Source: Escherichia phage vB_EcoM_E9.1. Taken from it: a stretch of 64,000 nt of DNA. Positions 29,662 to 39,777 of this stretch are shown piece after piece. Below the pieces are notes generated by a model, which was given only the letters and a program-made list of their open reading frames with translations, did no database searches and was not told the DNA's origin. Location: sequence record PP886230. One strand, 5' to 3'. The position numbers and the translations under genes were made by a program. Positions within the stretch are counted from its first letter, which is position 1; each line of letters starts with the position of its first letter.

Positions 29662-30000
29662 ATGGAACAATATTTTGAATTAATAAACAAAGTATCATTT
29701 TATGTAGTATCTTTGGTTTGGGTGTATTATATGTTTTGCTACATTATTGCATTCTTCCGATACACTACTTTATATGAACGTATCTATTATGATGCCCCAA
29801 TTTCATTCTTGATGTTTTGTGCATGTACGTGGGGAATATTAGAAGTACTGATATGTGGGTATAGTACTGATGAATTAAATCTGGTATCGGTCTTGACTGG
29901 GTTTTCATTTGTTGTTATGATAGCTGCCGTTCCAGTATGGTTGTTCTTTGGACTAGTTCATCGCATTGATATATGGCGTTCTAATATCCCTGAAAAGTAA
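29662..30000 (+). CDS. family-B small multi-pass membrane protein
   Basis: ORF 112 aa; 3-4 hydrophobic helices; basic motif FFRYTTLYERIYYD after helix 1; tail RSNIPEK. Confidence 0.65.
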   Translation: MEQYFELINKVSFYVVSLVWVYYMFCYIIAFFRYTTLYERIYYDAPISFLMFCACTWGILEVLICGYSTDELNLVSVLTGFSFVVMIAAVPVWLFFGLVHRIDIWRSNIPEK

Positions 30001-30009
30001 GGATTGGTA

Positions 30010-30351
30010 ATGATTTATTACACTAACATGTTTGCCTATGCTGTTGCTTGCATTTACATTGTGTACTTCTTATTCGGTGGAGTACTGTGCTTCTTTAAGT
30101 ACAAAACGTTGTTCAACCGAATGTACCCAAATCATCCAATTGTGGTTGTACTTTTGATTCTTTCAGTTTCTCAAATAATAGTTGAAACTACAATGGGTAT
30201 CAGTAGTGTACATTATAGTTTTGGTACTATAGTAATTATTACTATGCTTATTGCATACATTTTAGTACTTGGATATGGTATCTTTGGTAATATTGGTATG
30301 AAAATGTATCATCGAATTAAAACATTACGTGATAATCTACCGGAGCGTTGA
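30010..30351 (+). CDS. family-B small multi-pass membrane protein
   Basis: ORF ~113 aa (ATG 30010; track used TTG 30004); FFKYKTLFNRMYPN; tail RDNLPER. Confidence 0.65.
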   Translation: MIYYTNMFAYAVACIYIVYFLFGGVLCFFKYKTLFNRMYPNHPIVVVLLILSVSQIIVETTMGISSVHYSFGTIVIITMLIAYILVLGYGIFGNIGMKMYHRIKTLRDNLPER

Positions 30352-30352
30352 T

Positions 30353-30697
30353 ATGTATAATTTGAACCTAATCTCATATATTATAACAACACTGTTTACA
30401 TTCTATGCCTTTGTTGGTATAATCCTACTGTACTTTAAATTTTATAAAGTGTTTAACCGTTTCTATCCTTCAATGGAGAATGAGTTTTTCTTTGTGTTGT
30501 ACGTAGGTTACACATTAATGGCTACATGTTTCACTGTAGCCGATGGTGTCATCGGCATTAAAACTGATTCCCCAAATGGTAGTACGCTGGTTGCATTTAT
30601 TCTTACTGGATTCCTTGCAACTTATATTGCCTTCATTACAACATGGTCAGTGGTTGAATTTCTCTTGCGACTACGAAAGAATATGCCGAATCGATAG
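30353..30697 (+). CDS. family-B small multi-pass membrane protein
   Basis: ORF ~114 aa from ATG 30353 (TGATATG junction); YFKFYKVFNRFYPS; tail RKNMPNR. Confidence 0.65.
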   Translation: MYNLNLISYIITTLFTFYAFVGIILLYFKFYKVFNRFYPSMENEFFFVLYVGYTLMATCFTVADGVIGIKTDSPNGSTLVAFILTGFLATYIAFITTWSVVEFLLRLRKNMPNR

Positions 30698-30706
30698 GAG
30701 ACATAT

Positions 30707-30961
30707 ATGTTTGCGTTGCGTAATAAAAACACTAAAGAATTATTATGTATTGATACCGTATGGGATTGTGCGGGGTCAACTACAGTTCTTGAAGAAGGAA
30801 CTGGATATTGCGTGTTTGTTGTACATGATAGGAATGAACTCGAATTATTACTTGCTGAGTTCAATGCTGGTGGTAATCCTAACAGTACTGAATACCCTGA
30901 GATTATCAATCCAGCACCACCAGGCTCTTATGAAATTCTACAACTGTGGGAGTTGAAGTAA
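30707..30961 (+). CDS. hypothetical protein
   Basis: ORF 84 aa. Confidence 0.55.
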   Translation: MFALRNKNTKELLCIDTVWDCAGSTTVLEEGTGYCVFVVHDRNELELLLAEFNAGGNPNSTEYPEIINPAPPGSYEILQLWELK

Positions 30962-31341
30962 TGCGTCAAATGCACAAAGTAACCGAGCTAAACAAGCGTC
31001 TGGTTAAACAATCAATGTTCGAGGATAAAGAGTCTTATTATAACTTTAAACGTGCTGTAGAGGCTGCTATCCACATTCAGAAGCTTAAAGAACGTGGTTG
31101 TATTATTCTGGAAAATGGGTCGGAAGTTGTAACGGATGACTTTAGTGTAGCGTTTGATGTTTCACCTGACGGGACGCTATCAATGCCCCGCTTAGGAACT
31201 GGAAACATGACTGTTTGGGTTGGCTTCACTATGGGGAATGTACCTGGTACTGTGTACGTAGATGATGCGGAATTGAAAGACAGTTTCAAAAACTTATCTT
31301 ATCTTGAACCACAATACGCACATGAAATGAATTTATTTTGA
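30961..31341 (+). CDS. hypothetical protein
   Basis: ORF ~126 aa; TAATG stop-start overlap. Confidence 0.55.
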   Translation: MRQMHKVTELNKRLVKQSMFEDKESYYNFKRAVEAAIHIQKLKERGCIILENGSEVVTDDFSVAFDVSPDGTLSMPRLGTGNMTVWVGFTMGNVPGTVYVDDAELKDSFKNLSYLEPQYAHEMNLF

Positions 31342-31342
31342 G

Positions 31343-37676: not shown

Positions 37677-38023
37677 TGTTTGAAGCTTATCTTGAGTTTT
37701 TAAGGAGTAGTCCAGTTGCACATTCACTTGCAGGGATTATTCTAACAACTTATGTATCATTTTGGGTAGTTATGTTTCTAGGATGGTATTTTAAACGACA
37801 ATTCTATAAACGTAATGGTGAAGATTTTATAAATTCTGCCATTAATCAATCGTTGTTTGCATCAACATTGATTGCATGTATTGTAGCAACACTCACAGGA
37901 AAGGTACTACCAGCTTTTTCCGCAGTTTACGGCACACTTGGGATGATATGTTTAACTTTTATATTGACCATTAAAATTTGTTGTGTTATGATTGAACTTC
38001 GAAATAAGATACCGGAGGAATGA
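37676..38023 (+). CDS. family-B small multi-pass membrane protein
   Basis: ORF 115 aa; WYFKRQFYKRN; tail RNKIPEE. Confidence 0.65.
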   Translation: MFEAYLEFLRSSPVAHSLAGIILTTYVSFWVVMFLGWYFKRQFYKRNGEDFINSAINQSLFASTLIACIVATLTGKVLPAFSAVYGTLGMICLTFILTIKICCVMIELRNKIPEE

Positions 38024-38358
38024 TGGAGTACTTTATTGATTTACTGCCGTGGTATATGAAAGTTAGTACCATGTACTATATTATTAGTGCTGGATTCTAC
38101 TTTCTGATGTGGTTCTTTAAACGACCAATTTCAGTATTCATCGCTGATAACATGCTGCAATTAAAATTACACGCATGGTTTGGTATGGCGATGATTATGC
38201 CTATTATTCACTACTCAATGATTAGTAGAGGTTTCCGTTCTAATGGTGAACCAATTGTATTAGTATTCTATTGGGGTTCAACTATTGCATATGTAAGTTT
38301 GTTGTTGTTCCCAGTCGTTCATAAGTTACGTGCTAAAGTTCCTGATGCGAGGTACTAA
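38020..38358 (+). CDS. family-B small multi-pass membrane protein
   Basis: ORF 112 aa; WFFKRPISVF; tail RAKVPDARY. Confidence 0.65.
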   Translation: MMEYFIDLLPWYMKVSTMYYIISAGFYFLMWFFKRPISVFIADNMLQLKLHAWFGMAMIMPIIHYSMISRGFRSNGEPIVLVFYWGSTIAYVSLLLFPVVHKLRAKVPDARY

Positions 38359-38672
38359 TGGATATAGTAACATTGATTTACACGTTGTATTCATTCTATT
38401 TCATTATGTGTTGGGTTGGATTTTTATTTGTACTCAAGATGTTTGATTATGTTGAAAAACAGATAAAAGAATTTTGTATTCCTTTTATCGGTTCAACCAT
38501 TATTAGTGTTTCTTGTGTGTATTTTTTGGTTTTTGATCCACCAGATAACACTGCAATGATTGACTTGATGTTACTACCAACAACTGTTACTTTTTTATGT
38601 AGTCTGATGCCGCCGATTAGCCGTGGACTATCAGAATTTAGACGCAATCAAAAGCGTAAACGAGGGATGTAA
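38358..38672 (+). CDS. family-B small multi-pass membrane protein
   Basis: ORF 104 aa; tail RRNQKRKRGM. Confidence 0.6.
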   Translation: MDIVTLIYTLYSFYFIMCWVGFLFVLKMFDYVEKQIKEFCIPFIGSTIISVSCVYFLVFDPPDNTAMIDLMLLPTTVTFLCSLMPPISRGLSEFRRNQKRKRGM

Positions 38673-39040
38673 TGGAAATTGCTCTTATTATCTTAACTGC
38701 TATGCTGTTTATTAGTACTGTGGTTATAATTGGTAAATTCTTTTGTGTATCATTTTTAGAAACGGTATACGATGAAATTGCTGATGATTATGAATTACAA
38801 GCCGGATTTTTCATTACGTATTGGCTTAGTTTATTTTGTCTAGTCATTGCTTGGATTTTACATATCTTTAAATGGGGTATGGTAGACGGTGATCCTATTA
38901 TGGCAATTATTGTTCTAGTGTTTGGTATCCTTGGTGGTGCAGTGCATAATCTAATGGTTATCTGGCAAACTGTTCAATATGTTTTGGTTCCCTATTTCGA
39001 AAAGATGCACAGTACAATTAAAAAACGTAAACGAGGTTAG
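38672..39040 (+). CDS. family-B small multi-pass membrane protein
   Basis: ORF 122 aa; tail IKKRKRG. Confidence 0.6.
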   Translation: MEIALIILTAMLFISTVVIIGKFFCVSFLETVYDEIADDYELQAGFFITYWLSLFCLVIAWILHIFKWGMVDGDPIMAIIVLVFGILGGAVHNLMVIWQTVQYVLVPYFEKMHSTIKKRKRG

Positions 39041-39041
39041 T

Positions 39042-39404
39042 ATGAATGGGATAGAATTATCTTTCGTTGGTCAATTACTAGTAATGGCGTATACATTTAT
39101 CTTCTCACTGAATGCATTCGTGTGCATTGGGAAGTACTTCCATAAGCGACCATTATCAAATATATATGATGTAATCCAAAAGAGATATAGTCCAGCATAT
39201 ACTGTGTTGGGTACAGTATTCAATTTTGGTTTTATTGTATTAATAATTGGACTGTTCACATCCTCTTTGAATACAATAACCTTCGGTCTTATGATATGTT
39301 CATTGGTATTAGCCGTAATTATATGTTGTTTAGTACTGCACCTTGTGGTACTATTATATATAAAGATCTCTGAAATCCACCAACGTTTGGGTATGAGGAA
39401 ATAA
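39042..39404 (+). CDS. family-B small multi-pass membrane protein
   Basis: ORF ~120 aa from ATG 39042 (track start 38979 overlaps previous gene). Confidence 0.55.
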   Translation: MNGIELSFVGQLLVMAYTFIFSLNAFVCIGKYFHKRPLSNIYDVIQKRYSPAYTVLGTVFNFGFIVLIIGLFTSSLNTITFGLMICSLVLAVIICCLVLHLVVLLYIKISEIHQRLGMRK

Positions 39405-39405
39405 T

Positions 39406-39777
39406 ATGAGTTACCGTGAGATATTTTCCATTATTTCAATTATTATGTTCAGTACTGGAACACTGGCATGGTTATTATACTTCTTCTGTATTAATCCAGT
39501 GTATAATATGTTATGTAATATTAAATCAAGTGCCGGATATATCACTTTTATGGTCTTTATGGGATATTATTGTCTAAGCATTTTAGGTGTTGTTTTGGTT
39601 GTTATATTTGATGTGGGACCAAATAGTGATGGTATGGAAATACATGAATTAATAACCATGTTTGGATGTATGATACCAACAGCACTACTGTTTGTAGCTA
39701 CTGGTAGTGGATTGATAAAATTATATAATTATTTAAAATCCATTCATAATTCCATTCATAATAAGCGTATGTCATAA
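39406..39777 (+). CDS. family-B small multi-pass membrane protein
   Basis: ORF 123 aa; hydrophobic; basic tail. Confidence 0.6.
   Translation: MSYREIFSIISIIMFSTGTLAWLLYFFCINPVYNMLCNIKSSAGYITFMVFMGYYCLSILGVVLVVIFDVGPNSDGMEIHELITMFGCMIPTALLFVATGSGLIKLYNYLKSIHNSIHNKRMS

Follow-up and report, generated by a model that had tools for sequence, protein, structure and literature searches.

Ten small predicted membrane proteins of one remote family are encoded in two arrays of the jumbo coliphage vB_EcoM_E9.1

Introduction

Why should a phage carry ten diverged versions of one kind of small membrane protein, and what might these proteins do in an infected cell? The question is raised by a 64,000-nucleotide (nt) stretch of Escherichia phage vB_EcoM_E9.1 (sequence record PP886230), here called the window at its full length, in which ten plus strand open reading frames (ORFs), B1 to B10, lie in two arrays, one of three genes (29662-30697) and one of seven (37338-39777). 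By Megablast the window belongs to the genus Asteriusvirus, which comprises jumbo coliphages of about 350 kb that resemble PBECO4 and 121Q; the nearest record is that of vB_Eco_slurp01, which is 98.8% identical at the nucleotide level across window positions 29000-40000 and contains the same ten genes, labelled hypothetical proteins. An earlier note on this DNA had read them as paralogous membrane proteins with exclusion, holin/antiholin-like or immunity functions that diversified against a variable target. We show here that the ten genes belong to one remote family and that the array locus behaves as a hypervariable cassette within conserved flanks, and we weigh what the products may do, tentatively favouring a function as early exclusion or immunity-type factors in the host inner membrane.

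Results

The array genes and their translational coupling

All ten ORFs were found in the ORF list on the plus strand, in the two places and of the small size that the earlier note had given. Gene starts were set at the first ATG with a preceding Shine-Dalgarno sequence, in agreement with the slurp01 annotation, and the predicted products are 104-123 amino acids (aa) long. The upstream array consists of B1 (29662-30000, 112 aa, tail RSNIPEK), B2 (30010-30351, 113 aa, with FFKYKTLFNRMYP after the first transmembrane (TM) segment and the tail RDNLPER) and B3 (30353-30697, 114 aa, tail RKNMPNR), all of which match phrog_19285, B3 weakly. The main array consists of B4 (37338-37676, 112 aa, WYFKKKIVFKLYP after TM1, phrog_19454), B5 (37676-38023, 115 aa, tail RNKIPEE, phrog_19046), B6 (38023-38358, 111 aa, or 112 aa with the ATG at 38020, tail RAKVPDARY, phrog_27396), B7 (38358-38672, 104 aa, tail RRNQKRKRGM, phrog_33258), B8 (38672-39040, 122 aa, GKFFCV after TM1, tail KKRKRG, phrog_26405), B9 (39042-39404, 120 aa, GKYFHKRP after TM1), which has no PHROG match and is unannotated in phage phAPEC6, and B10 (39406-39777, 123 aa, tail HNSIHNKRMS, phrog_27618). 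The seven PHROG families, to which nine of the ten proteins are assigned with E-values of 1e-50 to 1e-70 (only 3e-4 for B3), are all of unknown function.

Overlaps of 1 nt are present at the B4/B5, B6/B7 and B7/B8 junctions and one of 4 nt at B5/B6 if B6 begins at 38020, so that the overlaps of 1-4 nt reported earlier hold for these four junctions, while at the remaining ones the genes are separated by gaps of 1-9 nt. The Shine-Dalgarno sequence of the next gene is located inside the last two to four codons at six of the seven junctions after B4-B9 and at one of the two after B1-B2, where it is spelled by codons for tail residues (for example CCGGAG for P-E, CGAGG for R-G, CGCGGAGAC for R-G-D and ATGAGGAAA for M-R-K). 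The array genes are translationally coupled, and because the Shine-Dalgarno sequence sits in the final codons, the conservation of the tails in part reflects a constraint of this coupling. The (R/H)-x-(K/N)-hydrophobic part of the tail lies upstream of the embedded Shine-Dalgarno sequence and is also kept where a spacer follows.

The ten proteins form one remote family

Pairwise identity among the ten proteins is about 20% (12-24%), and BLASTP gives significant matches only among B1, B2 and B3, between B1 and B10 and for a few other pairs. Orthologues were therefore sought with profiles: a hidden Markov model (HMM) built from the ten proteins was iterated over 412 ATG-initiated plus strand ORFs of at least 60 aa from the window and from nine related phage loci, from which the orthologues were gathered (slurp01, 121Q, fEgEco12, ph0011, Turkey5, A4, RaK2, Muenster and Munch). 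The search converged on 86 ORFs, among which the window members are exactly B1-B10; no further window ORF was matched. The HMM matches were clustered by BLAST into orthologue groups, and comparison of the group profiles by hhalign gave probabilities of 96% for B1-3/B4 (E 2e-9), 95% for B1-3/B5, 90% for B4/B5, 96% for B5/B6, 76% for B5/B7, 80% for B5/B9, 83% for B8/B9 and 92% for B8/B10, with B5 as the hub. These linking alignments are near-full-length and have scores of 33-56, and taken transitively they unite all ten proteins in a single family. With reversed profiles as a control no score rose above 18.5, and when seven other small multi-TM proteins of the window were compared with the family, the scores reached no more than 20 and the probabilities no more than 9%; hydrophobic composition is thus insufficient to produce the links. 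The paralogy proposed in the earlier note holds up, although it is remote and only some of the pairs can be joined by BLASTP.

The ratio of nonsynonymous to synonymous substitution rates (dN/dS, omega) of the ten genes, determined against fEgEco12 and ph0011, is 0.10-0.42, which identifies B1-B10 as genuine coding genes that are subject to purifying selection. Their evolution is on average faster than that of the neighbouring genes for a nucleoside triphosphatase (NTPase; 0.02-0.27) and denV (0.14-0.21) and of the 126-aa gene g131 at 30961 (0.07-0.13). Low pairwise identities and mostly weak BLASTP E-values might have indicated that the resemblance is one of hydrophobic composition between ORFs that are unrelated or not genes at all. 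Against this stand the profile links, which exceed every score from reversed profiles and from the other membrane proteins of the window, the restriction of the family HMM to array genes, the dN/dS values, and orthologues in several genera; this explanation is already refuted, and we attach practically no probability to it.

RaK2 ORF316-type proteins were taken up by the iterated HMM, yet hhalign joins them to no subgroup and they were set aside. The window also encodes further small predicted multi-pass membrane proteins on the plus strand, some of them adjacent to each other (359-544, 10916-11760, 20788-22242 and 33516-33710), which were rejected as members as they gave no HMM or hhalign signal and which may form other families.

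Predicted membrane architecture and regional constraint

A Kyte-Doolittle scan finds three TM segments in each of the ten proteins, in B6 only at a lower threshold; of the three to four hydrophobic helices expected earlier, three are present in every protein and four in none. Loop 1 and the C-terminal tail together contain 5-10 lysine or arginine residues and the N-terminus and loop 2 together 0-3, in all ten proteins, and by the positive-inside rule an N-out/C-in topology is predicted. The three segments and the charge pattern agree with the consistent multi-pass architecture that had been claimed, for which a topology check had been proposed. Homologues are already marked as TMHMM-predicted membrane proteins in the CBB and Muenster records, and for Muenster the TMHMM annotation reads three TM domains, N-out and C-in, for five of the eight main-array members; it disagrees for the other three, with two TM domains, N-in and C-in, for the B7 orthologue, and three TM domains, N-in and C-out, for the B10 orthologue and the last array gene. 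AlphaFold2, run with a 36-sequence family alignment, models B5 as three long helices accompanied by two short ones, at the N-terminus and in a loop (mean predicted local distance difference test score, pLDDT, 77.3) and B10 as three long helices (pLDDT 64.5).

The conserved motifs, an aromatic-basic motif right after TM1 and the tail, face the predicted cytoplasmic side. The motif occurs in the versions FFKY, WYFKR, WFFKR, GKFFCV and GKYFHKR; the strict form FF(K/R)Y..(L/V)F.R.YP, corresponding to the one described earlier, fits B2 and B3, in part B1 and loosely B4, while B5-B10 carry the looser versions. The tail reads (R/H)-x-(K/N)-(I/L/M/V) and then P-(E/D/N) or a K/R-rich end. Here, too, the earlier description applies to a subset, with R-x-(N/K)-(I/L/M/V)-P in B1, B2, B3, B5 and B6 and KRKRG(M) in B7 and B8, whereas B4, B9 and B10 have other basic tails. 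A length of about 100-130 aa, three TM segments, the aromatic-basic motif and a basic (R/H)-x-(K/N)-hydrophobic tail are found in all ten proteins.

When the genes are pooled, omega is 0.11-0.17 for the N-terminus together with TM1 (0.14-0.17 for TM1), 0.08-0.14 for loop 1, 0.48-0.49 for TM2, 0.17-0.21 for loop 2, 0.35-0.37 for TM3 and 0.22-0.28 for the tail. The pattern is alike in both comparisons and consistent with the identities within orthologue groups: constraint is strongest in the half of the protein made up of N-terminus, TM1 and cytoplasmic loop, and evolution is fastest in TM2 and TM3.

Distribution and synteny among RaK2-like phages

A word-indexed search of 5.8 billion proteins returned three close relatives for B2 and 31 for a ten-sequence profile, all from related phages, and an exhaustive HMMER profile search of 1.84 billion representative proteins returned just 56 clusters at E <= 1e-3. 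The cluster proteins are 56-130 aa long, 54 of them at least 99 aa, nearly all are matched over their full length, and the distant representatives keep the same motifs and layout; on the contigs of two of these that were examined, family genes occur in runs of two and five. A tblastn search with a Munch member found Munch-like phages only.

The left neighbour of the main array is a gene for an NrdC.10-like P-loop/AAA NTPase (36502-37272, plus strand), and with this gene as an anchor the main array was found directly downstream in every related phage examined, namely in the window (B4-B10) and in RaK2, Muenster, Munch, fEgEco12, Turkey5, A4, ph0011, Hallingskeid, CBB and XbC2. These RaK2-like jumbo phages infect Escherichia, Klebsiella, Salmonella, Erwinia, Pectobacterium and Xanthomonas. 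The number of copies per genome among the relatives ranges from 4 to 11: RaK2 and Muenster (Alcyoneusvirus) have eight in the array, Munch-like Salmonella phages one strong and three weak members after the NTPase gene, Erwinia phage Hallingskeid ten, Pectobacterium phage CBB (Mimasvirus) four to five and Xanthomonas phage XbC2 five to eight. B1-B3 form a second locus, which is likewise upstream in relatives, with one B1-3-like copy each in RaK2, Muenster and the Munch-like phages.

The arrays of the window and RaK2 are largely collinear and one-to-one at 21-38% identity, with B4 corresponding to ORF311, B5 to ORF309/310, B6 to ORF312 (38%), B7 to ORF313, B8 to ORF314 and B10 to ORF315 (38%), while B9 has no clear RaK2 orthologue. 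This collinearity implies that the duplications predate the split of the genera. Lineage-specific extras are 121Q gp224, RaK2 ORF309/310 and two B7-like genes in Turkey5. The first of these is a B4 paralogue (48% identity to B4) that is also found in SP27, JP4 and ph0011 and is absent from the window; in 121Q it is gene 224 (locus L003, 1501-1842). The 121Q orthologue of B7 is cut into genes 228 and 229 (L003, 2862-3177) by a frameshift and could be a real pseudogene or the product of a sequencing error. B5 deletions in Salmonella SD-phage records were considered as a sign of dispensability and dropped, since these records contain many fragmented ORFs, including a broken NTPase gene, and were not trusted.

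The array locus is a hypervariable cassette

Across 31343-37274 the nucleotide sequence of phage A4 agrees with that of the window at 91-97% identity, and this similarity collapses 2 nt past the stop codon of the NTPase gene. Inside the array a single stretch of 250 bp is detectable (74% identity), the A4 array proteins are 25-67% identical to their window counterparts, and high similarity resumes only at 46022. The three array types of Asteriusvirus (PBECO4-like, Turkey5 and A4) show mutual identities of 27-66%, mostly 30-45%, which is about the distance to RaK2. The converse is seen in ph0011, where the NTPase is 58% identical and the array proteins are 73-86% identical. Individual genes of one array may also diverge to different degrees, as in fEgEco12, where B10 is 63% identical to the window protein and B6 and B7 are 91% identical, and this indicates that single members have been exchanged. 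The B1-B3 island is represented in A4 by one diverged copy, with conservation restarting exactly at a perfect promoter at 31343, and in Munch and Muenster the cluster is likewise down to one copy. The array locus is therefore a hypervariable cassette in conserved flanks, of which whole arrays and single members are exchanged between phages. Diversification, as proposed in the earlier note, is thus supported in the sense of hypervariable cassettes between conserved flanks, but a recent burst is not, given ancient one-to-one orthologues in a retained order and under purifying selection.

The NTPase itself (36502-37272; loci L006, L007 and L008) occurs as two deeply divergent alleles within Asteriusvirus, that of A4 being 98% and those of ph0011 and Turkey5 58% identical to the window protein, and the allele is independent of the array type downstream; the region is accordingly a modular mosaic whose breakpoints fall at gene ends or promoters. 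A tight functional coupling of NTPase and array was considered and set aside, because a recombination breakpoint lies between them and their histories differ.

Genomic context and possible expression

A sigma-70-like promoter, TTGACA-17-TACTAT, lies 30 nt upstream of B4 (37280-37308, plus strand), with a hairpin in its spacer, and another, TTGACA-17-TATTCT (29313-29341, plus strand), in the gap before a 93-aa gene (29378-29659) that runs straight into B1-B3; both are assigned by consensus match. Both sites have a short inverted repeat in the 17-nt spacer (GTACTACCATAGTGTAGTAC and CAGAACTGATGTTCTG), and the GTACT motif of these spacers recurs in a hairpin after B10 (CCAGTACTTGATAGTACTGG). This hairpin (39782-39807, 11-bp stem) is located 5 nt past the B10 stop codon, and as its T-run is on the minus strand only, plus strand transcripts may extend into the 220-aa gene at 39819. 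Read-through into B4 from a promoter at 36444 is likely, since there is no terminator between the NTPase gene and B4. Many more sigma-70-like promoters precede plus strand genes throughout the region. The 36444 site is one of seven copies of a plus strand intergenic repeat of about 45 nt (the others being at 22788, 26031, 26214, 28617, 32904 and 34186) of the form AAAGGG-TTGACT-TCGGTCAGCCC-TTTTTGC-TATAAT, in which a G+C-rich terminator-like hairpin with a T-run holds the -35 element TTGACT in its stem, with a consensus -10 element downstream of it; judged by its sequence, it looks like a combined terminator-promoter that punctuates the early region.

Adjoining B1-B3 is the gene for a 224-aa protein (28642-29316) with a PHROG match to the T7 gp0.7-type protein kinase/host-transcription inhibitor (E 2.5e-97), and the other neighbours of the arrays are denV, the NTPase gene, RCC1-like genes and uncharacterised ORFs. 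The equivalent region of phage CBB, rich in RpoD promoters and small ORFs, has been read as one of early host-takeover genes (PMC5259590). The two promoter-like sites, the gp0.7-like kinase and the reading of the CBB region all agree with the early, host-takeover-type setting suggested in the earlier note. The array products gp012c-gp017c are not among the 62 virion proteins of phAPEC6 (PMC7247149), a proteome in which small hydrophobic proteins easily escape mass spectrometry, and this suggests that they are not virion proteins.

Behind the arrays of RaK2, Muenster, A4 and CBB lie genes for mutually related serine-rich proteins whose N-terminus is basic and which have a lipobox-like cysteine (RaK2 ORF317, L002, 13744-14340; A4_235, L007, 12384-12935; CBB_547, L017, 8747-9370; Muenster_562, L009, 14779-15366). 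The Muenster protein is labelled a putative outer-membrane lipoprotein in its record, and CBB_547 is labelled PF06693 DUF1190. The recurrence of this lipoprotein-like gene in several lineages suggests an envelope module; in the window the slot after the array is taken by an unrelated 220-aa ORF (39819-40481).

Several further features were noted in the surroundings. A perfect 77-bp tandem duplication (35678-35833, 2.0 copies, 100% identity) shifts the reading frame, so that a single coding sequence of 1887 bp in slurp01 becomes ORFs 34471-35820 (449 aa) and 35853-36434 (193 aa) in the window. From 40462, on the minus strand, a convergent series of RCC1-repeat ('DNA condensation') paralogues comes right after the array region, and mass spectrometry has placed their phAPEC6 homologues in the virion. 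Just upstream of the kinase gene are two genes (27615-27866 and 28186-28605) for small proteins that have a signal peptide at the N-terminus; the fEgEco12 homologue of the first protein is labelled 'lytic conversion lipoprotein', and the window protein is without an obvious lipobox.

Comparison with known families and published work

A profile search of PDB sequences gave one match only, to MscS at E 1.4, and matches in BFVD were to the 'putative membrane protein' entries of phages GAP32 and CBB, that is, to relatives. The sole PADLOC match, of B4 to PycTM, is below threshold (E 0.026, 12 bits); together with other scattered sub-threshold matches to unrelated membrane families (Wzy, DUF350, SUR7 and DUF443) it was treated as noise. 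The papers on phAPEC6, fEgEco12, CBB, Sharanji and persistent phages do not discuss the array genes, and we did not find the profile links, the synteny with the NTPase gene or the cassette behaviour described in the literature.

Discussion

The B1-B10 proteins form a distinct, uncharacterised phage family that probably does a job already known for accessory phage membrane proteins, and the question is which one. T4 Imm and Sp and HK97 gp15 are small, early phage inner-membrane proteins that act in exclusion, are dispensable and are encoded in plastic genome regions, and it is this functional analogy that we favour. T4 Imm has two TM helices and Imm and Sp are each encoded by a single gene, unlike the three-TM proteins and ten arrayed paralogues described here, and Pfam Imm_superinfect gave no match at E <= 1, nor did PHROGs give a match to Imm or Sp. 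In size and number of TM helices the family also resembles the immunity proteins against E1/Ia-type pore-forming colicins, which are three-TM inner-membrane proteins of about 110 aa whose specificity resides in the TM helices and of which diverged variants exist against diverged toxins. However, the genes of the latter are plasmid-borne and stand beside the colicin gene, whereas B1-B10 are in phage arrays and have no Pfam or NCBIfam match. The likeness to both groups is one of analogy only.

The explanation that we put forward, tentatively and with well under even confidence, is that the B proteins are independent early factors of an exclusion or immunity type that act at the level of the envelope in the host inner membrane. 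Soon after infection each paralogue would insert in the inner membrane and act alone; insertion and a shared scaffold would be supplied by the conserved N-terminal half together with the basic motifs on the cytoplasmic side, and the variable TM2/TM3 pair would recognise a membrane-level partner that differs from paralogue to paralogue, for example an inner-membrane protein used by competitor phages for DNA entry, a membrane-damaging toxin or a defence effector. In this way the phage would possess a whole set of specificities, and recombination would reshuffle them. We favour this explanation because the loci are hypervariable between phages of the same host species, because single members are exchanged and duplicated, because a predicted lipoprotein is found in the neighbourhood in several lineages, and because Asteriusvirus genomes often persist in Escherichia coli isolates (bioRxiv 10.1101/2024.12.31.630880). 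Exclusion functions would pay in such a persistent lifestyle. Bacterial assemblies by now contain roughly 100 or more Asterius-like genomes.

Several points weigh against this proposal. Pfam, NCBIfam and PADLOC searches with the ten proteins, and Pfam searches with 36 members, gave no credible match, and neither in sequence nor in fold could the family be linked to a holin, Imm/Sp, colicin-immunity or defence family. Early expression is predicted from promoters that are consensus matches, and a transcriptome of phages of this group was not found in our literature search; likewise, insertion into the membrane and the N-out/C-in topology are predictions. In the comparisons with fEgEco12 and ph0011 omega exceeds 1 in no gene or region, and the faster evolution of TM2 and TM3 could reflect a mere relaxation of constraint on lipid-facing helices. 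Finally, the long one-to-one orthology, the largely kept gene order and the tight coupling fit a fixed multi-subunit complex at least equally well.

Such a complex is the main rival, on account of the long-term orthology and the translational coupling. The paralogues would then be subunits of one hetero-oligomeric inner-membrane complex, a channel or a scaffold, made in fixed ratios from a coupled operon, and it agrees with this idea that RaK2 retains orthologues of B4, B5, B6, B7, B8 and B10 in largely the same order, that start and stop codons overlap or abut with Shine-Dalgarno sequences embedded in the preceding genes, that A4 differs by block replacement of the whole array, and that one fold plan and one conserved cytoplasmic face are common to all members. 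A complex agrees less well, however, with a copy number that varies from about 4 (Munch, CBB) to 10-11 (Hallingskeid, Turkey5, ph0011), with the lineage-specific extras of 121Q, RaK2 and Turkey5 and the split B7 gene of 121Q, with the exchange of single members implied by gene-by-gene divergence, and with the reduction of the B1-B3 cluster to a single copy in three phages, and we consider a complex rather improbable. We are similarly doubtful that each paralogue binds and tunes or inhibits a host inner-membrane protein, such as a transporter, a respiratory or division component, a protease or a sensor kinase, for the benefit of replication. Bacterial small regulatory membrane proteins are of a similar size and topology, TM1 and the cytoplasmic loop are conserved, and the early-type region also holds the gp0.7-like kinase gene and other takeover candidates; but inner-membrane proteins that are conserved among enterobacteria poorly explain why arrays are 55-75% different between phages of the same host species.

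The holin/antiholin-like function also considered in the earlier note fares worse. Class I holins of the lambda S105 type have three TM segments, an N-out/C-in layout and a basic C-terminal tail, and B1-B10 share with them the length of about 105-120 aa, the three TM segments, the predicted topology and the basic cytoplasmic C-terminus, so that holins, antiholins or lysis-timing proteins of this class would fit in shape. Yet none of the ten proteins matches a Pfam or PHROG holin family even at E = 1, nor do the 36 members in Pfam, there is no endolysin, spanin or other lysis cassette within about 8 kb on either side, the promoters are of host type in an early-type region, the genes come in 7-10 tandem copies, and in the fEgEco12 record the array genes are labelled plain hypothetical proteins, a holin being reported elsewhere in that genome by the fEgEco12 paper. 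As family match, lysis-cassette context, the expected late expression and copy number all fail, we do not class B1-B10 as holins and regard this function as very unlikely. A bolder form of the immunity idea, which we hold to be unlikely as well, is that the arrays amount to a library of membrane 'antidotes' that recombines, each paralogue neutralising a different membrane-attacking agent. The targets would be the TM effectors of abortive infection, pore-forming bacteriocins or the DNA-entry route of rival phages, and with the antidotes the cell would survive the long or persistent infection that these jumbo phages typically cause; if true, this would be a phage counter-defence principle for which no family has been described.

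Most genes of jumbo phages lack an assigned function, and the present analysis unites at least seven database families in a single superfamily, which is a marker of the RaK2-like group as a whole. The array locus is among the most variable in otherwise near-identical genomes, and this variability points to an interaction at the membrane level with something that itself varies, be it competitors, host defences or toxins. With 2.4 kb and 1 kb the two arrays are a compact experimental target in phages that are being developed for therapy, and if their products do exclude other phages or act against membrane-acting defences, this would matter for how phage cocktails are composed and for how these phages persist in bacterial isolates.

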